From Candidatus Culexmicrobium cathedralense (GTDB taxonomy: Archaea; Thermoproteota; Methanomethylicia; Culexarchaeales; Culexmicrobiaceae), in assembly GCA_025061115.1 (NCBI GenBank), contig JANZKC010000002.1:26509-50508 (forward strand): DNA of 24,000 nucleotides, written 5' to 3'. The notes beneath the pieces are model-generated. The model was given only the letters and a program-made list of their open reading frames with translations. It was not told where the DNA came from and did not search any database. Of the stretch, positions 3,494 through 19,623 are shown piece after piece (position 1 is the first letter of the stretch; each line of letters opens with the position of its first letter). Made by a program: the position numbers and the translations under genes.

Positions 3494-5296
3494 TCACGTT
3501 ACTGCGGTAGCTTGCATTCCTAACTGAGAAGTGTAGAGCTTGTAGTAAAGACCTTTCCTCTCCATGAGTTCATTATGAGAACCCTCCTCAATGATTTCTC
3601 CATTATGTATAACTATAATTCTATCACAATCCCTAGCTAAAGTTAGTCGATGTGCAATTATAATTCCTGTTTTTCCTTGGAATAGTTTTTTAATGGCATT
3701 TTTAATCATTTCTTCAGTTTGAGGATCTACACTTGACATTGCCTCATCGAGAATTAATATTGATGGATTACGCAGCATAGCTCTGGCGAATGCTATTAAT
3801 TGCTTTTCTCCAGTTGATAATTTTCTGCCTGCTTCTCCTGCATCTGTTTCATATCCATGAGGAAGCCTCATTATGAAGTTGTGGATTCCAAGTTTTTTGC
3901 ATACGTTAATTACATCTCGCTCGGTTGCTCCGGGCTTTCCTATCTTAATATTCTCCATTATTGTTCCTGGAAATAGGTATGTTTCCTGTGGAACGAAACC
4001 TATAAGCATGCGAAGTGATTTTTGCTTGATTTTTCTTATATCATGTCCATCAATCAATATGGATCCTCTCTTAACATCATAAAATCTGCATAATAAGCTA
4101 ACTAAAGTTGTTTTACCTGCTCCTGTTGGCCCAACTAGGGCAACTATTTCTCCAGGATTTATCGTTAAATTAATGTTTTTGAGGACAGGCATGCCTGGAT
4201 TATACTCAAAGTAGACATTTCTGAACTCTATTTTACCCTTTATTTGAGTTAGCTCAATTGCATCTGGAGCATCTTTAACATCCAATTCTACATCTAATAT
4301 GTTGAATATTCTTTCAGCAGCTGCAAAGGCAGCTTGAATTGCGTCATACATGTTTACAAGCGTCATTATTGGCATCGTAAATCGAGTAACATAGGATAGA
4401 AATGCTACAAGAGTCCCTATGCTCACTGCTTGAATTGAAGTCAAGTAACCACCATACCATAATACGAGGACGGTGGCTACAGTTGAAAGCATTCGTATTA
4501 TTGGCCAGAAAAGAGCCATCAATCTTCCTGCAGCCACGTTTGCCTCCAGGGTCTCCCTTGAAGCAGCTCTAAAGGATTTAGCTACAGCATCTTCCCTTCC
4601 AAATGCTTGAATCACCTTAATTCCAGATATGCTTTCTTGAACTTTAGCTGTAACTTTAGCTATTTTCTCCCTAGTCATCCTGTATGCTTTCCTCATTTTA
4701 GAGCTAAAAACATAGGCAACCGCAATCATTACTGGAATTATTGTAAGAGACACCAATGTGAGAGGTATACTTAACATAAACATGGCTGCCAAAATGCCTA
4801 CCAATGTTATTAGATCTCCAATCACGCTGAAAACTCCAGTTACCAAGACTTCTTGCAGCGTTGAAGTGTCATTCACGACTATGGATATTAGCTCACCCAC
4901 TCTTCGCTTATTATAGAAGCTAAAGGACAACTTCTGAAGCTTTTCAAAAATTTGCCTCCTAATGCTATTAAGGAATTTTTGTCCAACCCACTCGAGAGCA
5001 TATCCTCTTAAACTTTGGGAGGCCCATTGACCAACAGCGCAAACCACATATAGACCCGCCATAATTAAAAGACCAGCTAAATCCCCCCTCAAAATGTAAT
5101 TGTCAATTGCCAATCCAAGTATATAGGGTGCAGCTAAGCTTGCAAACGAGTTGACTATAGTTAAAATAGCAACCGCCACGAAAGCCAATTTATAAGGCGC
5201 TAAGTTTCTAATTAACCTCCTCAGAAGAACTGTGGATGGCGTGGTCACCTTAACCTTTTCTTGCTTCCACATTCTCCTAAAATGAAAGCCCGTCAA
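3494..5296 (-). CDS. ABC exporter subunit (TMD-NBD half transporter) with a canonical catalytic NBD
   Basis: 600-aa ORF with an N-terminal six-helix exporter-type TMD. Walker A GPTGAGKTT, Walker B ILILDEA (catalytic Glu present), H-loop IIIAHRL, and a non-canonical signature LSTGEKQ. The TTG at 5296 overlaps the upstream stop (TTGA). An alternative ATG lies at 5272. Confidence 0.9.
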   Translation of the reverse strand: MTGFHFRRMWKQEKVKVTTPSTVLLRRLIRNLAPYKLAFVAVAILTIVNSFASLAAPYILGLAIDNYILRGDLAGLLIMAGLYVVCAVGQWASQSLRGYALEWVGQKFLNSIRRQIFEKLQKLSFSFYNKRRVGELISIVVNDTSTLQEVLVTGVFSVIGDLITLVGILAAMFMLSIPLTLVSLTIIPVMIAVAYVFSSKMRKAYRMTREKIAKVTAKVQESISGIKVIQAFGREDAVAKSFRAASRETLEANVAAGRLMALFWPIIRMLSTVATVLVLWYGGYLTSIQAVSIGTLVAFLSYVTRFTMPIMTLVNMYDAIQAAFAAAERIFNILDVELDVKDAPDAIELTQIKGKIEFRNVYFEYNPGMPVLKNINLTINPGEIVALVGPTGAGKTTLVSLLCRFYDVKRGSILIDGHDIRKIKQKSLRMLIGFVPQETYLFPGTIMENIKIGKPGATERDVINVCKKLGIHNFIMRLPHGYETDAGEAGRKLSTGEKQLIAFARAMLRNPSILILDEAMSSVDPQTEEMIKNAIKKLFQGKTGIIIAHRLTLARDCDRIIVIHNGEIIEEGSHNELMERKGLYYKLYTSQLGMQATAVT

Positions 5297-7098: not shown

Positions 7099-7197
7099 TG
7101 AAGTTTTAATCCCAACACCTCCCTGTAGCTACATACTCGTATGGAGCTTGATTATATAGAATATAATCATCCTAGATAAAAATGTTACGTAGATAAC

Positions 7198-8339
7198 TCA
7201 CAAACTATTACCTTTACCTCCATGCTTATATGCTATGGCGCAGGCACCTTCGCTAGAAACCATGCATGGCCCAACTGGATTTAGCGGATTACACGTCCTA
7301 GCAAAGAGCGGGCATTCCCATGGCATTATTAGACCTCTTAAAACATCGCCACACCTGCATCCCGGAGGCATTTCATAGCTCTCTTCAACCTCAAGGTCAA
7401 ATTTCAACTCTGCATCATACTTCTCAAACTCACTTTTAAGCTTCAATCCCGAATTCGGAACCCTACCAATTCCCCTCCAGTCGGCATCGTAAATGTCAAA
7501 TACTTCCTTCATCATTCTCTGCGCCTTCACATTGCCCTCCTCCTTAACAACCCTCGCATATTCATTGAAAACATCATAGTGACCCTCCCTAATCATTTGA
7601 ATGAGCATCGCAGTTCCTATCAAAACATCAATCGGCTCAAATCCAGCTATGACCATTGGAGCCCTAAACCTCTTCGCAATCGGTCTATAAGGTTTAACTC
7701 CAATTATAGTTGAAACGTGACCTGGACAAATGAAGCCATCTATTTTAAGTTCACCGAGCCTAAGCAGGAACTCCATGACCGGCGGAATAAGCAGGTGAGT
7801 GCATATTATCGAGAAATTGCTGGGAGGCTTTTCAAGCAGAACTGCAGCTGTGGATGGAGCAGTAGTTTCGAATCCAATTGCAAAGTGAACCACCTCCTTA
7901 TCCGGATTATTAAGAGCTAACTTAACCGAATCCCAAATACTATACACCACAACAACATTTCCACCCATGGACTTAGCTTCCATAAGCGATTGCCTCGTCC
8001 CCTTAACCCTAAACATGTCTCCAAAAGTAGTTACTATCACGTCATTCCTCATTGAAAGCTCAACCGCCTCCTGAACTTTAACTGGAGAAGCCACGCATAC
8101 TGGGCATCCTGGACCTGCTCTCAAATCTACTTTAGAAATTAAACTTCTAATTCCAAAGTGGGTTATCGTATATTCGTGAGTCGGCCAGCCGCTTAATGCG
8201 GCTGTGTGCCGCACACATGCATAACTAGGAACCTATCCTCACCGCACAACCTATTTATATATGCAACCAACTTCTCAGCCAATTTCCTATCCCTATACTT
8301 TGAAATCAAATCGAGAAGTTCCATCACATTCACCCCCAT
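7198..8339 (-). CDS. hypD: [NiFe]-hydrogenase maturation protein HypD, reading frame interrupted by a 26-nt BHB-flanked insert (exon 1 8206..8324/8339, exon 2 7198..8179)
   Basis: The 63-aa ORF (8193..8384) carries the HypD N-terminus (MELLDLISKYRDRKLAEKLVAYINRL...FLVMHVCGT). The 338-aa ORF (7198..8214) carries the rest: HEYTITHFGIRSL...GPGCPVCV, GFETTAPS, CPGHVSTIIG, PPGCRCGDVLRG...CPLF...CNPLNPVGPCMVSSEGACAIAY. Deleting 8180..8205 joins ...VCGT|HEYTIT... in frame. Total length is 1098 nt from ATG 8324 or 1113 nt from ATG 8339, both divisible by 3. ATG 8324 is preceded by GGGGTGA plus 5 nt. ATG 8339 overlaps the upstream stop (TGATG). Confidence 0.85.
8180..8205 (-). other. Candidate bulge-helix-bulge (BHB) intron inside the hypD coding sequence
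   Basis: The RNA sense strand, with descending window coordinates, reads: UGUG(8215-8212) CGGC(8211-8208) [AC|A](8207-8205) CAGCCGC(8204-8198) AUUAA(8197-8193) GCGGCUG(8192-8186) GCCG(8185-8182) [AC|U](8181-8179) CACG(8178-8175). This gives a 4-bp outer helix (one G-U pair), a 4-bp central helix CGGC/GCCG flanked by two 3-nt bulges on opposite strands, and a 7-bp inner hairpin. That is the canonical hBHBh' geometry. The in-frame TAA (8195..8193) lies in the hairpin loop. Confidence 0.7.
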
Positions 8340-8854
8340 CAGCTTGCCAATGCATAATATAGAAGTGAAAATGCAAATGCGCAAACCGCAAAGTTAGCTA
8401 AATGATTATCATACCTTACATTTGCAATTTTAAAGTCCATTCCATGCTTAATAAAGAAATCCAATGTGAAACCAATAGTTCTAACTCCAGAAGGATTTAG
8501 CGCATCCAAAAGCCAGTGAAGAAAGACAGCTAAAGCAGCAACTACGGGATTAAAGCGAATCAAATACGCAACTATTGGAGCCAATGCAGTAAACGTATAA
8601 ACGCTATGCGTTAACCCGCACCTATGCTGAATTAACCCCTTAAACAAGTGGTCAAAATCAGGAGCTATACCAAATATTGCACCCTGAACTCCAAGAGAAA
8701 TAAACGAAAGATCAACAAATGAAGCTAAATCGGATTGAATATCAACTTCAAACCCATATAGAAGCTTAGCTAGAATTACAGAAAAAGTCCAGCCCACAAC
8801 TAAATGCGTGTACTTCTGCATTACAATCTCCACAAATGAGAAGCAGGTAAGCAC
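8339..8854 (-). CDS. Membrane-bound metal-dependent hydrolase, DUF457 / YdjM-like
   Basis: Hydrophobic ORF with THLVVGW near the N-terminus, IAPDFDHL, and HRCGLTHS, as in the DUF457 family. The track start is GTG 8854. ATG 8821 (MQKYTHLVVGW...) is the more likely start, giving 160 aa. Confidence 0.65.
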   Translation of the reverse strand: MLTCFSFVEIVMQKYTHLVVGWTFSVILAKLLYGFEVDIQSDLASFVDLSFISLGVQGAIFGIAPDFDHLFKGLIQHRCGLTHSVYTFTALAPIVAYLIRFNPVVAALAVFLHWLLDALNPSGVRTIGFTLDFFIKHGMDFKIANVRYDNHLANFAVCAFAFSLLYYALAS

Positions 8855-13837: not shown

Positions 13838-14710
13838 TTAAGTATTACTGGGCTCCTGAGAAGCGGCAGGCTCCATGAGCTTTCTCTTAAACCTAACTGC
13901 GCCAGATTTTACGTGAGGAGTGCGAATCACCGAGTCAATTGACTTTTCAATTTCCCTAGCTTCATCAGCGAGCTTCGCTGCAAATCTCATTAGCTCATGT
14001 GCAGCAGCAACAATTGGAATATACTGCTCCCTACGCTTAAGTACGTAGCATCCCCTCGTCGATAGGCGAGCAACTCTTCTAGCAGCTTCATAGCACGCAA
14101 TGGCCTTGGCTCTCGCGTATGGGTTTGTGAAGCCCCCATAATTGTTCACTACGAATTCCGCTGAACCAATTATTTTTGGAAGATCAACTTTACCTCCAGA
14201 CTTAATTTGACTTATAATGCGGTCAATTTCACTGACAATCATCCTAAACACGCCAGCTACTGCAAGAACCCTTAAGACATCGCTGTTGAATAGCACCATT
14301 TCAGTCGCATCCAAGAAATCCCTTCTAGCACCAATCATGGAGTCAGCTTCAACAATTATGTACCCAAATCCCTCAGACTCAAGCTCATCGGCAACTTTCT
14401 TGGCAGGCTCATCAGATATTATAATGATTGAAGCGTTAGGCAACCTTTTCCTCAATTCCCTTCTACCAGCAGTCGGCCCTTCGAGAGCAGCATTTGGAGT
14501 AACAACTACTACTAGTTGAGGCTCAAACCTTGCAGCTTCAACTGAAACTTCAATACAGTCCTCTGGACTCATTTTACCGCCAGTGGAGTACACTCTAACT
14601 TTAATGTCCTCCCTATTAGAACGCTCGTCCAAAGCTATCTCTAGTAGGGGAGAGCAACCTATGCAGCCAAACTTGACAACCGCAATTCTAACTGGCTCCA
14701 AATCATTCAC
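13838..14710 (-). CDS. mtd: F420-dependent methylene-tetrahydromethanopterin dehydrogenase (Mtd) homologue
   Basis: Collinear similarity to methanogen Mtd as I recall it. VKFGCIGCSPLLEIALDERSNREDIKVRV..GGKMSPED parallels IKCGN.GTS...D.LLDERADR. GFGYIIVEADSMIGARRDFLDATEM..FNSDVLRVLAVAGVFR parallels GLGYI.VK.D.M.GARREFLDP.EM. A further block is YIPIVAAAHELMRFAAKLADEAREIEKSIDSVIRTPH. The track start is GTG 14710. TTG 14701, preceded by GGGGTGA plus 4 nt, is an alternative. Confidence 0.85.
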   Translation of the reverse strand: MNDLEPVRIAVVKFGCIGCSPLLEIALDERSNREDIKVRVYSTGGKMSPEDCIEVSVEAARFEPQLVVVVTPNAALEGPTAGRRELRKRLPNASIIIISDEPAKKVADELESEGFGYIIVEADSMIGARRDFLDATEMVLFNSDVLRVLAVAGVFRMIVSEIDRIISQIKSGGKVDLPKIIGSAEFVVNNYGGFTNPYARAKAIACYEAARRVARLSTRGCYVLKRREQYIPIVAAAHELMRFAAKLADEAREIEKSIDSVIRTPHVKSGAVRFKRKLMEPAASQEPSNT

Positions 14711-14791
14711 CCCCCTAAATTAGCTTTCTAAAAATATAAGTATATGAGTGTAAGATTTGGTGAAAGTGACTGAATTTACGGAGGTTTGCGG
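14711..14791. promoter_or_regulatory. Divergent promoter region between mtd (-) and fhs (+)
   Basis: 81-bp spacer with a central AT-rich TATA-like block (CTAAAAATATAAGTATAT, about 14728..14745) usable in either orientation. A GGAGGT SD at 14781..14786 lies 5 nt before fhs ATG 14792, and GGGGGTGA precedes the mtd start. No transcription start data are available. Confidence 0.35.
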
Positions 14792-16444
14792 ATGTCCTCA
14801 TGCGAAATGAAACCAATTATTGAAATAGCTAAAATGCTTGGATTAAGCGAAGACGACATAGAGCTCTACGGCAAGTATAAAGCCAAGATCAAACTTGAGG
14901 TTTATGAGCGATTAAAGAACAAGCCAGACGGGAAACTCATAGTAGTAACAGCAATAACGCCAACCAAAGCAGGCGAAGGAAAAACAACTGTAGCAATAGG
15001 ACTTGGAGAAGCGCTTGGAAAGCTAGGTAAAAAGAATATAGTAGTACTGAGGCAGCCATCACTTGGACCAATTTTTGGAATAAAGGGAAGCGCATGTGGA
15101 GGTGGACGCGCCCAAGTAGTTCCAATGGAAGACATCAGCCTACACTTCACAGGAGACTTGCATGCAATCACAGTTGCGCACGACCTATTAGCTGCAATGC
15201 TAGATAACCACATTTACAGAGGCAATGAACTAAACATCGACATACACAACATCCTACTAAAGAGAGTACTAGATGTCGAAGATAGGCCGCTTAGACATAT
15301 AGTTATAGGACTTGGAGGAAAGTTGGGCGGAATACCCAGAGAAAGCGGCTTCGAAATAACCGCAGCATCAGAGGTAGCTGCAATACACGCACTTGCAGTC
15401 AATTTGAAAGACCTAAAAGAAAGGCTGGCCAGAATGACGATAGCATATACAAAAGATGGAAAGCCAATAACCCCAGCAGACATTAAAGCCCACGGAGCAA
15501 TGACTGCACTCTTAAAAGACACACTAAAGCCAAATCTAGTTCAAACCTTGGAGAATACGCCTGCAATAGTTCACGGAGCACCATTCGCGAACATAGCTCA
15601 CGGCTGCCCCAGCTTAATCGGAATAAAGATGGCGTTAAAGCTCGCAGACTACGTGATTGTAGAGCCAGGATTCGGAGCAGACTTAGGCTTAGAAAAGTTC
15701 TGCGATATAGCTTGCAGAATCGGCAATTTGAAGCCAGATGTAGCAGTCATAGTTACATCAATACGAGCTCTCAAAGTTCATGGAGGAGTTAAATTTAAAG
15801 AAGTAGACAAGCCTAATGTTGAAGCAGTCCGAAAAGGACTTGAAAACCTCGAGAAGCAAGTTGAAAATGCAAGGAAATTCGGACTGCCAGCAGTAGTTGC
15901 GATTAATAGATTCCCAAGCGACACGGATGAAGAGGTAGATTGCGTCAAAAAGTGGTGTGAAGAAAAGAAAATACCAGTAGCAGTAGTTGAAGTATTCCAG
16001 AAAGGCGGGGAAGGAGGAATAAAATTAGCTGAAAAAGTACTCGAATTACTTGAAAAAGAAAAGGCAAACTTCAAATTCCTCTACGACCTAGACATGCCGA
16101 TTGAAGAAAAAATCAAGACAATTGCAAGAGAAATGTATGGAGCTGACGATGTCGAATTCACACCCGAAGCCAAGAAGGCAATAAGAAAGATAAAGAAACT
16201 TGGATTCGACAAACTACCAATAAACATGGCCAAAACACCGCTCTCATTAACCGATAACCCAAAGAAGGTTGGAAGGCCAAAAGGATTCAAAATTAAAATT
16301 ACGGATATAAGGCCATTCACTGGCGCAGGATTCCTCGTAGCATACTGCGGAGAGATTAACACGCTGCCAGCACTGCCGTCAAAGCCAGCAGCAGAGGAAA
16401 TCGACGTTGATGTTGAAACCGGAAGGATAATTGGACTTAGATAG
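14792..16444 (+). CDS. fhs: Formate-tetrahydrofolate ligase (formyl-THF synthetase)
   Basis: About 550-aa ORF with IEIAKMLGLSEDDIELYGKYKAKI, the P-loop TPTKAGEGKTT, and GFGADLGLEKF. The track start is TTG 14786. ATG 14792, just downstream of GGAGGT (14781..14786), is preferred. Confidence 0.92.
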   Translation: MSSCEMKPIIEIAKMLGLSEDDIELYGKYKAKIKLEVYERLKNKPDGKLIVVTAITPTKAGEGKTTVAIGLGEALGKLGKKNIVVLRQPSLGPIFGIKGSACGGGRAQVVPMEDISLHFTGDLHAITVAHDLLAAMLDNHIYRGNELNIDIHNILLKRVLDVEDRPLRHIVIGLGGKLGGIPRESGFEITAASEVAAIHALAVNLKDLKERLARMTIAYTKDGKPITPADIKAHGAMTALLKDTLKPNLVQTLENTPAIVHGAPFANIAHGCPSLIGIKMALKLADYVIVEPGFGADLGLEKFCDIACRIGNLKPDVAVIVTSIRALKVHGGVKFKEVDKPNVEAVRKGLENLEKQVENARKFGLPAVVAINRFPSDTDEEVDCVKKWCEEKKIPVAVVEVFQKGGEGGIKLAEKVLELLEKEKANFKFLYDLDMPIEEKIKTIAREMYGADDVEFTPEAKKAIRKIKKLGFDKLPINMAKTPLSLTDNPKKVGRPKGFKIKITDIRPFTGAGFLVAYCGEINTLPALPSKPAAEEIDVDVETGRIIGLR

Positions 16445-16454
16445 GTGCAAGGAT

Positions 16455-17303
16455 ATGGCAAGAATACTCGACGGAAAAGCTCTTTCCAATAAAATACTAA
16501 ATAACTTGGCCGTTGAAGTTGAAAGGTTGAAGAGGGAAGGAGTAATTCCGAAAATTGCACTCGTACTAGTAGGCGAAGACCCATCATCAAAAACCTATGT
16601 GAAGTTGAAGGCTAGGAGAGCCAAAAAAATTGGAGCTCAATCCGAGGTCCACAATTTACCTGAAAGCATCGGTGAAGAGCAGCTCATAAAACTCATTGAT
16701 AAACTAAGTAGAGATGAAAGCATCCATGGAATAGTCATTCAAATGCCACTTCCAAGCCACATCAACGAAAGGAACGTCATAAATGCACTAGACCCTAAAA
16801 AGGATGTAGATGGCTTACACCCATTAAACCTCGGAAAACTATTGCTGGGGGAAGAATGCCTAGCCTCACCAGCAGCAGAAGGAATAATTGCACTACTAGA
16901 AGAATACGATGTCCCGATTAAAGATCAAGAGGCAGTAATATTGGGTGCCACCGAGCTAACGGGCAAGCCGCTAGCAGCAATGCTAATAAATAAAGGAGCA
17001 GATGTGACAATCTGCCATTCAACATCAACTAGAATTGAAGATTACACCAAAAGGGCAGATATAATAGTTGCTGACATCGCTAAGCCTAAAGCAATCCACG
17101 GCTCAATGATTAAAAGAGGAGCAGCAGTCATAGATTGCGGATTCAACTACATTGAAAATAAGCTGGTAGGCGATGTGGACTTCGAATCAGCCGTGCAAGT
17201 TGCTTCAGCAATCACTCCAGTTCCCGGCGGCGTCGGCCCAATGATCATAGCAATGCTGCTATCTAACCTAATTAAAGCAGTAAAAGCATATTTTCTTACG
17301 TAA
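16455..17303 (+). CDS. folD: Bifunctional methylene-THF dehydrogenase / methenyl-THF cyclohydrolase
   Basis: Family hallmarks: ARILDGKALS...PKIALVLVGEDPSSKTYVKLK...IHGIVIQMPLPSHI...TPVPGGVGPMIIAML. ATG 16455 lies 10 nt after the fhs stop and is preceded by AGGTG. The track start 16431 would overlap fhs. Confidence 0.9.
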   Translation: MARILDGKALSNKILNNLAVEVERLKREGVIPKIALVLVGEDPSSKTYVKLKARRAKKIGAQSEVHNLPESIGEEQLIKLIDKLSRDESIHGIVIQMPLPSHINERNVINALDPKKDVDGLHPLNLGKLLLGEECLASPAAEGIIALLEEYDVPIKDQEAVILGATELTGKPLAAMLINKGADVTICHSTSTRIEDYTKRADIIVADIAKPKAIHGSMIKRGAAVIDCGFNYIENKLVGDVDFESAVQVASAITPVPGGVGPMIIAMLLSNLIKAVKAYFLT

Positions 17304-17827: not shown

Positions 17828-19171
17828 ATGATTGCAAGTAAAACTTACGACGTAGAAAGCGCAATTAAGAAGCTTGAGCAGGAAGACGTGAAGTACCTCA
17901 GACTCATAATAGTTGATATACACGGAGTGCCAAAAAGCTTAATCATCAAAAAGGACGATTTCGAAGATGCATTAACCTATGGAGTTGGCTTTGACGGATC
18001 ATCGATTCAAGGGTATGCCCAAATTGAAAACAGCGATTTAATTGCAATTCCTGATCCATCGACTTTAACATTAGCGTATTGGGAAGAAGGGAAAACAGCC
18101 GCAGCCATATGCGACGTATATACTCCGGAATACAAGCAATTCCAAGGAGACCCTAGATTTATATTGAAGAGAATTGTTGAGCAAACTTCATCAAGAAACT
18201 TGAAAGTTAAAGTTGGAATCGAACTTGAATACTTCATTGTAAATAAAAGCGTTGAAAGCGAAATTAAGCCTCAAGACTCTGGACAGTGCTTCGACACTGT
18301 GCCAATGGACTATGGAGATGATCTAAAGAAGAGGTTGGGAGAAATCATATGCAGAGTAGGATCTTCATTTGAGAAAATGCATCACGAAGTAGCCCCAGGA
18401 CAACATGAACTGTCCATTTCAGCTACAGATCCAGTTAGGCTAGCAGACATAATGATAATATCAAAGCTAGCTGTAAAATCGATAGCTAGGAAAGTAGGAT
18501 TCACGGCTACATTCATGCCTAAGCCATTCTTCGGAGTAAATGGCAGCGGCGCCCATGTCCACGTAAGCTTGCAAAGCAAAGAAGGGAAAAACCTATTCTA
18601 TGATAAAGCGAGTAATGGGCTTTCGCAATTAGCCATCCAATTCACTGGAGGAATCCTATCTCACGCAAAAGGCTTATCATTATTAGTTGCGCCTCTAGTA
18701 AATTCATATAAGCGCCTAGCTCCAGGATATGAGGCCCCAGTATACATATGCTGGGGATATAGCAATCGCTCCACGCTCATCAGGATACCTAGACCAATAA
18801 GGGAAAAAACTTGTAGAATCGAGTATAGACATCCAGACCCATCATTCAACCCATACTTGGGGTTGGCAGCCATAATAGCTTCAGGATTAGATGGTATAGA
18901 CAGAAAGTTAAATCCTGGAGAGCCATGCCAATTAAACGTCTATCACGCCGAAAACAACTTTGAAAGACTACCTGAAAACCTCCATGAAGCAATCATAGCA
19001 TTTGAAAACGACAAAACAGTTAAAAGAGCAATCGGAAAGCATGCTTCAAGCAAAATTGTCGAATTAAAGATAAAGGAGTGGAATTCATATATAGAGTCTG
19101 AAGGAGACTGGAATTCAACTAAAAACAAAATTACCGCATGGGAAATTCAGAAATATTTGGAGAGAGTCTAG
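17828..19171 (+). CDS. glnA: Glutamine synthetase, type I
   Basis: 447-aa ORF with HHEVAPGQHE, KPFFGVNGSGAHVHVS, and NSYKRLAPGYEAP. Confidence 0.92.
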   Translation: MIASKTYDVESAIKKLEQEDVKYLRLIIVDIHGVPKSLIIKKDDFEDALTYGVGFDGSSIQGYAQIENSDLIAIPDPSTLTLAYWEEGKTAAAICDVYTPEYKQFQGDPRFILKRIVEQTSSRNLKVKVGIELEYFIVNKSVESEIKPQDSGQCFDTVPMDYGDDLKKRLGEIICRVGSSFEKMHHEVAPGQHELSISATDPVRLADIMIISKLAVKSIARKVGFTATFMPKPFFGVNGSGAHVHVSLQSKEGKNLFYDKASNGLSQLAIQFTGGILSHAKGLSLLVAPLVNSYKRLAPGYEAPVYICWGYSNRSTLIRIPRPIREKTCRIEYRHPDPSFNPYLGLAAIIASGLDGIDRKLNPGEPCQLNVYHAENNFERLPENLHEAIIAFENDKTVKRAIGKHASSKIVELKIKEWNSYIESEGDWNSTKNKITAWEIQKYLERV

Positions 19172-19623
19172 CGTTGAAAAGTGTTGAGCTCGACGAAATA
19201 GATATCAAAATCATTAAAGAACTGCAGAAAAATGCAAAGCAAACCTACAGAGAATTATCAGACAAGCTGGGACTAGCAATTGGAACAATATACAATAGGA
19301 TTAAGAAGTTAGAGGAAAATGGAGTAATAAGAAACTTTACAATTAATTTAGACTACTCCAAGCTTGGATACGATTTAACAGCAATAATAATGATGCAAGT
19401 TGAAGGTCCATACATCATTGAAATAGAAAAGCGACTAGCCAACTACGAAGAGGTAATGAGCGTATATGATATAACTGGAGAATTCGACATCGCAGTAATT
19501 GCAAAATTTGTGGATAGAGAACACCTAAACAAATTCATTAAAGGAATACTCACTATGCCCCACATAAAACGAACAGTAACTAGCATCGCGCTAAGCGTAG
19601 TAAAAGAAAACTTTAAACAATAA
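19138..19623 (+). CDS. lrp: Lrp/AsnC-family transcriptional regulator
   Basis: N-terminal HTH (LDEIDIKIIKELQKNAKQTYRELSDKLGLAIGTIYNRIKKLEENGVI) followed by a RAM/AsnC_trans_reg-type domain. ATG 19138 overlaps the glnA 3' end by 34 nt. TTG 19174, 2 nt after the glnA stop, is an alternative start. Confidence 0.85.
   Translation: MGNSEIFGESLALKSVELDEIDIKIIKELQKNAKQTYRELSDKLGLAIGTIYNRIKKLEENGVIRNFTINLDYSKLGYDLTAIIMMQVEGPYIIEIEKRLANYEEVMSVYDITGEFDIAVIAKFVDREHLNKFIKGILTMPHIKRTVTSIALSVVKENFKQ

Follow-up and report, generated by a model that had tools for sequence, protein, structure and literature searches.

The 24,000-nt stretch of contig JANZKC010000002.1 from Candidatus Culexmicrobium cathedralense, an uncultivated archaeon of hot sediments, analysed here (hereafter the window, numbered from its first nucleotide) carries on its minus strand an interrupted copy of hypD, which encodes a hydrogenase maturation factor. 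The sequence makes it highly likely that the gene is broken by a 26-nt archaeal bulge-helix-bulge (BHB) intron, which splits the Thr codon of the active-site motif C-G-T-H-E after its second base. Two overlapping minus-strand open reading frames (ORFs; 8193..8384 and 7198..8214) represent the two halves of hypD. When nucleotides 8205..8180 were deleted in silico, a single continuous frame was obtained in which MHVCGTHE was regained, with a length of 366 codons from the ATG at 8324 or 371 codons from the ATG at 8339. The spliced product aligned with T. kodakarensis HypD (2z1d, E 1e-101) without a gap through MHVCGTHE, and the GPGCPVC motif and the C-terminal CxxC... motifs were aligned as well. 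It also matched the Pfam HypD family (PF01924) with 467 bits over positions 2-350 of 351. Solely after the removal of 8205..8180 could the product be assigned to the HypD family.

In the RNA, the minus strand from 8219 to 8172 reads CAU GUG UGC GGC ACA CAG CCG CAU UAA GCG GCU GGC CGA CUC ACG AAU, and the positions of the elements described below are listed in Table 1. The outer helix (h) consists of four pairs including one U-G pair (U8215-G8175, G8214-C8176, U8213-A8177, and G8212-C8178), and the central helix (H) consists of four pairs that are all G-C or C-G (C8211-G8182, G8210-C8183, G8209-C8184, and C8208-G8185). The strand order, h-H-bulge-h' ... h'-H-bulge-h with h' being the inner hairpin, matches that of the canonical tRNA-type hBHBh' motif. 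Two 3-nt bulges lie on opposite strands with a 4-bp helix between them, and the flanking helices, for which at least 2 bp each are demanded, amount to 4 bp on the outer side and, across the alleles described below, 5-11 bp on the inner side. A premature in-frame TAA is located at 8195..8193, within the hairpin loop.

Relatives of the interrupted gene were found by a search with the spliced protein, by a pattern scan of metagenome contigs in which the hairpin was left free and the central helix was variable, and by one further lookup. The protein search returned full-length homologues (P0002 and P0004, with 81% and 69% identity, respectively) and homologues that had been called about 30 residues short (P0003, 77%; P0005, 72%; P0026 and P0044, 63%). 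The short homologues open with an out-of-frame read-through of an insert, such as MYAAHSLNGWPTHE and MRHTARIAGWPKHE, and their DNA carries the insert at the identical position, between GGC AC and N CAY GAA. Together with that of the window, 15 distinct alleles were found at one hypD codon, with lengths of 22, 23, 26, 27, 28, and 37 nt. The N-terminal segments of the carrier hypD genes are 47-85% identical to that of the window, and the identities of four full-length HypD proteins are 63-77%. The carriers are divided into clade A, comprising Ca. Culexmicrobium cathedralense and other Culexarchaeia (some of them labelled Verstraetearchaeota or Methanomethylicota), clade B, comprising Bathyarchaeia, and clade C, which groups near Bathyarchaeia.

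According to the rule stated in a study of the cbf5 introns (PMC2738675), BHB motifs are cleaved between the second and third nucleotides of the bulges. The application of this cut to both bulges in silico restored CGTHE and an open frame in 15/15 alleles, over all six lengths. Full length was demonstrable in 12 of the 15 spliced alleles. L095 and L106 are cut off by the ends of their contigs, and L107 was followed in separate readings of its 5' exon, its junction, and its called 3' ORF of 300 aa. The insert lengths are of the classes 3n+1 and 3n+2, and once 3n (27 nt, L107). The notion that the length is never a multiple of three was true for 13 alleles and was given up with the 27-nt insert of L107, which has TAA TAG in frame. 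Reading of the sequences by hand showed that the unspliced frame meets a stop within 4-15 codons in every allele. In most alleles (window, L002, L003, L011, L095, L102, L106, and L107), the hairpin loop contains the first in-frame stop, TAA or TAG; selection against aberrant products is one possible reason, and the mere A/U-richness of the loops is another.

The alleles share a conserved framework around a variable interior. The 5' bulge ACA, a 3' bulge of the form A-N-N, of which the third base is the third base of the Thr codon, and the 3' strand GCCG of the central helix are present in all of them, and the hairpin stems include CAGCCGC/GCGGCUG, CAGCCAG/CUGGCUG, CAGCCU/AGGCUG, CAGCCC/GGGCUG, CAACCG/CGGUUG, and CA-N-CUUCCA/UGGAAG-N-UG. 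Pairing and covariation were counted over 14 aligned alleles, using the same alignment with the partners slid by 1-3 columns as the control. Paired bases occupied 90.3% of the cells versus 29-38% in the slid controls, and the covariation score was 0.239 versus 0.03-0.08. Double-sided changes were observed in six pairs, five of which belong to the inner hairpin; inner pair 6, for example, varies among G-C, A-U, U-A, and C-G. The number of compensatory cells, 23, was matched by 0/500 shuffles, and these compensatory changes indicate that the BHB structure has been maintained in evolution. The counts are conservative because clade C, in which an extra nucleotide shifts the hairpin by one column, was counted as aligned. 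Covariation of the central helix was sought with a pattern that allowed YGGN...NCCR, and CGGC/GCCG was found alone, except for one mismatching CGGA variant. The support for this helix comes from its invariance and from codon bias rather than from covariation.

The codon bias was seen by comparison with intron-free hypD genes, which were obtained from a protein scan of genome contigs. The seed of the scan was the uninterrupted MHVCGTHE peptide, and thus almost only intron-free genes were returned. The codons TGC GGC, which form the CGGC strand, are used in 14/15 intron alleles versus 7/84 intron-free genes. The outer pair G8214-C8176 joins the third base of the Val codon to that of the His codon. 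It is G-C or A-U in 14/15 alleles, whereas the two bases are Watson-Crick compatible in 22/84 intron-free genes; the compatible codon pairs are GUG...CAC and GUA...CAU. Intron-free sisters within the same clade have drifted to TGC GGG (L007) and TGT GGT (L009). The exon codons that form the helices are thus constrained in the intron carriers alone.

Purifying selection acts on the two exons alike. Among the intron-bearing alleles, the ratio of nonsynonymous to synonymous substitution rates (dN/dS) was 0.08-0.30 in exon 1 (37 codons) and 0.05-0.15 in exon 2, where dS, as in exon 1, often exceeded 1, and no further frameshift or stop was present in any spliced allele. The paper describing Culexarchaeia (PMC9723716) reports several [NiFe]-hydrogenases in these organisms and leaves hypD, introns, and splicing unmentioned. 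Since several [NiFe]-hydrogenases are encoded, the hosts need HypD.

These results bear on an earlier interpretation of the window, made from its letters alone (hereafter the sequence-only reading), which had proposed a BHB intron in the hypD mRNA. Its base pairs, bulges, loop, and coordinates are all present base for base, including the TAA in the hairpin loop, and the geometry it ascribed to a substrate of the tRNA-splicing endonuclease EndA is that of the canonical hBHBh' strand topology. The expected restoration of CGTHE and of an ORF of 366-371 codons by removal of the 26 nt was likewise confirmed by the continuous frame and the gap-free alignment with 2z1d. The 15 alleles, the compensatory changes, and the cut rule that restores CGTHE further support its central proposal.

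In a neighbour-joining tree, all the carriers fell into one clade of 26 leaves, in which eight intron-free genes are nested. Among the latter, L007 is sister to the window lineage and L009 is sister to L100. The inserts share the core ACACA...UGGCCGA, which argues for a single origin of the intron and its repeated precise loss. The losses in close relatives suggest that the intron is dispensable. Most likely, the intron is an old, neutral or mildly selfish passenger, which may persist because it is seated in codons that can hardly change.

Several observations weigh against an intron and have to be set beside the evidence given above. The geometry is unremarkable by itself: a scan of the window found 353 minimal hBHBh' motifs versus 388 ± 28 in dinucleotide shuffles, and motifs with an outer helix of at least 4 bp and an inner helix of at least 7 bp numbered four in the window versus a mean of 2.8 per shuffle. 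The local fold is moderately unusual (z = -3.06). In the minimum-free-energy fold, the central helix, the 5' bulge, and the hairpin are kept and the register of the outer helix is shifted; the strict BHB lies above the minimum by 2.7 kcal/mol in the window and by 2.7-6.9 kcal/mol in the alleles, with competing registers of the outer helix. Strict 3-nt bulges are found in 12 of the 15 alleles. The 28-nt alleles of clade C (L092, 7324..7374 minus; L104; L096, 591..641 minus) carry, in the 3' strand, one additional A that faces the 5' bulge, and in L092 and L104 GGA stands in place of GGC and the fourth central pair is mismatched. The hypD genes of clade C are otherwise intact, and their inserts may represent a relaxed BHB that would need a tolerant endonuclease of broad specificity. 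In the protein databases, five clusters of intron-bearing products consist of truncated calls throughout, with no full-length version. A junction-spanning profile search of public protein collections, which is an insensitive search, yielded distant short fragments only and no near-identical full-length product. Finally, the alleles belong to just three clades, and therefore Fisher tests overstate their independence.

The motif counts, being no higher than those in the shuffles, led us to drop the BHB geometry as stand-alone evidence, and the motif itself, the main argument of the sequence-only reading, carries less weight than it had seemed to. The improbable part is the exact coincidence of the motif with the interruption, the boundaries of which are set on independent grounds by the protein alignment. 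When random 26-mers were placed at the hypD site, a central helix together with a hairpin of at least 7 bp occurred at a frequency of 3.6e-5. Since the geometry alone is not significant, the case rests on the comparison of relatives. A "frame-mending" filter applied to the scanner matches was too loose, as nine of the 10 matches that passed were spurious. Another BHB-like match in the spacer between hypD and an ABC transporter gene (7107..7188 minus, 82 nt, outer helix 5 bp, inner helix 10 bp) had a fold z of -0.46 and is probably due to chance. An Rfam scan of the window gave no match. No tRNA gene was found when the window and 20 related loci were scanned for them, which left no tRNA introns of the same organisms for comparison.

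Several other explanations of the interruption were weighed. One is that hypD is a plain pseudogene, killed by a 26-nt insertion whose hairpin and BHB shape are accidental. A stretch of 24 kb does yield about 2.8 BHB-like motifs of similar quality by chance, and gene callers and NCBI give only a truncated 338-aa product. However, 15 alleles are interrupted at the same codon and are otherwise intact, the hosts rely on [NiFe]-hydrogenases, the substitutions within the insert are compensatory, and the helix-forming exon codons are constrained. With dN/dS of 0.05-0.30 in both exons at saturated dS, the relaxed selection and added lesions of a pseudogene are absent, and the selection and covariation data effectively refute this explanation. 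An artefact of assembly or sequencing, or a strain-level insertion of a palindrome resembling a miniature inverted-repeat transposable element (MITE) or a repetitive extragenic palindrome (REP) that is not removed from the RNA, would be in keeping with the insert being a GC-rich palindrome in a genome of 39% GC. Against this, identical alleles occur in independent NCBI, JGI, ENA, and Logan assemblies, that of the window also on a 531-kb contig of a metagenome-assembled genome (MAG), and 14 further alleles come from other samples; the independent assemblies exclude an assembly artefact. Nor does the insert behave as a mobile element: it is single-copy in the window and confined to hypD within about 700 kb of related loci, target-site duplications are absent, and its boundaries coincide with the bulges. 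This explanation, too, has a negligible probability. The sequence-only reading had itself named outcomes that would count against it, among them relatives combining the insert with further inactivating mutations and an assembly or chimeric artefact; for the former the opposite was found, and the latter is contradicted by the recurrence of the same alleles in independent assemblies.

The remaining alternatives would obtain a working HypD from the unspliced message. HypD might be a split protein, in which a peptide of about 45-55 N-terminal residues, closing with ...CGT and a short tail, assembles non-covalently with a C-terminal fragment starting from about ...GWP-T-HE, without RNA splicing. 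Purifying selection on both halves, as observed, is predicted by such a split, and most alleles possess, just 5' of the insert, an ATG or GTG in the downstream frame that is used by gene callers. We nevertheless consider it very unlikely, because the contiguous CGxHE active-site motif would be divided with an incomplete Thr codon, and because the conserved bulges, the CGGC/GCCG helix, the compensatory changes in the hairpin, and the constraint on synonymous codons would be left unexplained. Moreover, the N-terminal tails of the would-be C-terminal fragments differ in every allele, and in L107, with its 27-nt insert, the frame runs into TAA TAG and offers no start codon ahead of HE; a usable start is first met after GPGCPVC. 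Ribosomal recoding, either a programmed frameshift or a bypass over the hairpin in the style of phage T4 gene 60, is still harder to credit. The stable hairpin and the early stop resemble the bypass signals of gene 60, and in the window the take-off ACA and the landing ACU are both Thr codons. However, when the triplets of the 3' bulge are read, the landing triplet in the frame of exon 2 is AAA, AUU, AUA, or AGA in 7/15 alleles, with ACA as the take-off, and the matching take-off and landing codons of translational bypassing are thus not found. Since these seven landing triplets do not encode Thr, bypassing cannot regenerate CGTHE. Frameshifting fails as well, since the lengths of 3n, 3n+1, and 3n+2 would require different shifts and 7-12 variable residues would be added to the active-site motif; in addition, there is no conserved slippery site.

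An intron in hypD could also be more than a passenger. It might be a retained control point that makes the assembly of all [NiFe]-hydrogenases dependent on EndA and the RNA ligase RtcB, an archaeal counterpart of XBP1/HAC1, and perhaps also the tip of a wider set of mis-annotated BHB introns in protein-coding genes of uncultivated Thermoproteota. We regard this as unlikely. The suggestion in the sequence-only reading that hydrogenase maturation could be made dependent on RNA splicing, taken as regulation, is speculative and found no support, and the repeated precise loss points to a dispensable intron. If the wider set were real, every pipeline would label its genes "truncated" or "split".

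We therefore return to a BHB intron as the best explanation of the interruption, for which the following mechanism can be proposed. In the pre-mRNA, UGUG-CGGC-AC of exon 1 would pair with GCCG at the 3' end of the intron and with CACG of exon 2, and the interior of the intron would form the hairpin, so that each strand would keep one 3-nt bulge, with 4 bp between the two. EndA would cut after the second nucleotide of each bulge, at the sites given in Table 1, and RtcB would join the exons to give ...UGC GGC AC/U CAC GAA..., where the slash marks the junction. The intron would be released, probably in a circular form. Functional HypD would be produced from the spliced mRNA alone, whereas translation of the unspliced mRNA would end at the TAA after four extra codons. 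EndA and RtcB are generally expected in the genomes of Archaea, including those of the hosts.

Table 1. Features of the interrupted hypD gene and its upstream neighbour, in window coordinates.
Feature	Position	Strand	Remarks
YdjM-family membrane protein gene	8339..8854	minus	upstream of hypD
hypD exon 1	8206..8339	minus	ATG at 8339..8337, alternative ATG at 8324..8322; 3' end ...ATG CAT GTG TGC GGC AC, the final AC being bases 1-2 of the Thr codon in the CGTHE motif
Whole hBHBh' motif	8175..8215	minus	both exon-intron boundaries inside
Outer helix h, 5' strand UGUG (exon 1)	8212..8215	minus	partner 8175..8178
Central helix H, 5' strand CGGC (TGC GGC codons, exon 1)	8208..8211	minus	partner 8182..8185
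5' bulge ACA	8205..8207	minus	predicted 5' splice site between C8206 and A8205
Predicted BHB intron, 26 nt, ACAGCCGCAUUAAGCGGCUGGCCGAC	8180..8205	minus	base 3 of the 5' bulge, inner hairpin, 3' strand of the central helix, and bases 1-2 of the 3' bulge
Inner hairpin h'	8186..8204	minus	7-bp stem CAGCCGC (8204-8198)/GCGGCUG (8192-8186), loop AUUAA (8197-8193)
Central helix H, 3' strand GCCG (intron)	8182..8185	minus	
3' bulge ACU	8179..8181	minus	predicted 3' splice site between C8180 and U8179
Outer helix h, 3' strand CACG (His codon and base 1 of the Glu codon, exon 2)	8175..8178	minus	
hypD exon 2	7198..8179	minus	first base U completes the Thr codon, followed by CAC GAA (His-Glu); stop at 7198..7200
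Predicted spliced junction			GTGTGCGGCAC joined to TCACGAATATACG
Predicted unspliced sequence			GGCACACAGCCGC
Predicted circular intron junction			...GGCCGAC joined to ACAGCCGC...

The first ATG of hypD (8339..8337) overlaps the stop of the YdjM-family gene as TGATG (8337..8341, minus). This arrangement suggests that the two genes may be co-transcribed and translationally coupled, and it favours the start that gives 371 codons over the start that gives 366 codons. The neighbourhood of hypD is conserved in Culexarchaeia (window 13838..17303; L003, L009, and L107), where it includes FTHFS, methylene-H4MPT dehydrogenase (MTD), a class I tRNA synthetase, and two ABC transporter genes; other hyp genes are not nearby. 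In the loci of Bathyarchaeia, hypC is located 2-3 kb from hypD. Two of these loci (L005 and L006, 5386..6480) contain a Cas12f1-like/TnpB gene (PF07282) between a metallophosphatase gene and hypC, which is absent from the syntenic stretch of L011 and represents an insertion polymorphism of an IS200/605-type element near hypD. An apparent 450-nt insertion in a hypD gene of Promethearchaeota (Asgard; L063) was rejected as unrelated, since it consists of an intact gene and a downstream duplicated fragment. The duplicated piece (4420..4506) encodes the last 29 residues of HypD and is located about 350 nt downstream of the intact hypD. Elsewhere in the window (17828..19623, plus), a glutamine synthetase gene overlaps the start of the gene of an Lrp/AsnC-family regulator (19138..19623) by 34 nt, and the two are possibly a regulator-target pair.

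The deposited HypD proteins of intron-bearing genes are N-terminally truncated, with lengths of 316-342 aa (MCS7386021.1, MCD6154337.1, MBS7643672.1, and others). They start in exon 1 or within the intron, in the wrong frame, and do not contain the essential Cys of CGxHE. For example, a 338-aa HypD from the Ca. Culexmicrobium cathedralense MAG GB-1867-005 falls into the same 90% cluster as the window product, the representative of which differs from the window ORF by a single residue, H222R. Metabolic reconstructions could misread such deposits as a defective maturation pathway, and our finding corrects the public annotation of the HypD proteins of Ca. Culexmicrobium and several Bathyarchaeia.

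For more than 20 years, coding-sequence introns of the endonuclease type have been documented for cbf5 alone, in one group of Crenarchaeota, in addition to one case in a 5' untranslated region (UTR). The statement of the sequence-only reading that cbf5 was essentially the only such case in protein-coding genes fits the searchable literature, in which the 5'UTR case of Haloferax is found in addition. Neither a combination of BHB with hypD nor BHB introns in genes of Bathyarchaeia or Culexarchaeia were reported in that literature. With its intron, hypD very probably joins cbf5 as just the second archaeal coding sequence known to be interrupted in this way, and a 2023 review expects further cases. 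A second, independently hosted case in two other archaeal classes would imply that the tRNA-splicing machinery processes mRNAs more broadly. The strict hBHBh' motif of 41 nt, half of which consists of codons, offers a clean biochemical substrate, and the alleles and their intron-free relatives provide a natural series of gain and loss for the study of intron origin and precise loss. The present case also supplies a recipe for searches, namely to look for conserved genes that are interrupted within a conserved motif and have a BHB precisely at the interruption.

Among known systems, the closest to the hypD intron is the pre-mRNA intron of cbf5 in Crenarchaeota, which is reportedly also to be credited to Watanabe et al. 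2002 and Yoshinari et al. 2006. The cbf5 introns of 16-44 bp split the codon of the catalytic Asp and are cut by EndA (PMC2738675, Yokobori et al. 2009). The hypD introns are similarly short (22-37 nt) and split an active-site codon, that of the Thr in CGTHE. In both genes, an exon-intron pairing of the BHB type sets the boundaries with the cut between bulge nucleotides 2 and 3 (predicted in the case of hypD), a conserved core encloses a variable interior, and the distribution is patchy, with losses that can be deduced within one archaeal group. The host genes are different, because cbf5 encodes an RNA pseudouridine synthase, and so are the carriers, which are Sulfolobales and Desulfurococcales for cbf5 and Culexarchaeia and Bathyarchaeia for hypD. 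Most cbf5 BHBs are relaxed and need a heterotetrameric endonuclease, whereas most hypD alleles have the strict hBHBh' form. The splicing of cbf5 has been shown experimentally, whereas that of hypD is what we infer from the sequence. With another host gene and another lineage, the hypD intron lies outside the homologous family of cbf5 introns; it works like the cbf5 intron, yet is not homologous to it.

A BHB in an mRNA is also known from HVO_1309 of Haloferax volcanii, where the splicing endonuclease acts on a BHB intron in the 5'UTR (Schwarz et al. 2020, PMC7714728). HVO_1309 is a second example of EndA acting on mRNAs. Its BHB is located in an untranslated leader of a euryarchaeon with an enzyme of the alpha2 type, whereas that of hypD breaks the reading frame. 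With canonical pre-tRNA introns (position 37/38) and the BHB processing stems of pre-rRNA, the hypD motif shares the geometry, the strand topology, and presumably EndA and RtcB. Archaeal tRNA introns are 11-175 nt in length (PMC2738675), and the hypD insert is within this range. Unlike a pre-tRNA, the hypD substrate is an mRNA without a tRNA body, in which the helix strands are also codons, and thus RNA and protein are jointly constrained. A more distant parallel is found in eukaryotes. The unconventional cytoplasmic splicing of HAC1/XBP1 mRNA uses the endonuclease IRE1 and a tRNA ligase or RtcB, and the XBP1 intron is 26 nt in length. Splicing of the HAC1/XBP1 type is mentioned in PMC13149111. 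By analogy, both systems would combine a short coding intron, a protein endonuclease acting at paired stem-loops, a ligase of the tRNA type, and a change of frame, and the identical length of the XBP1 intron and the window intron is a coincidence. The endonuclease and the RNA motif are different, and the splicing of XBP1/HAC1 is a regulated stress switch; the parallel is no more than an analogy.

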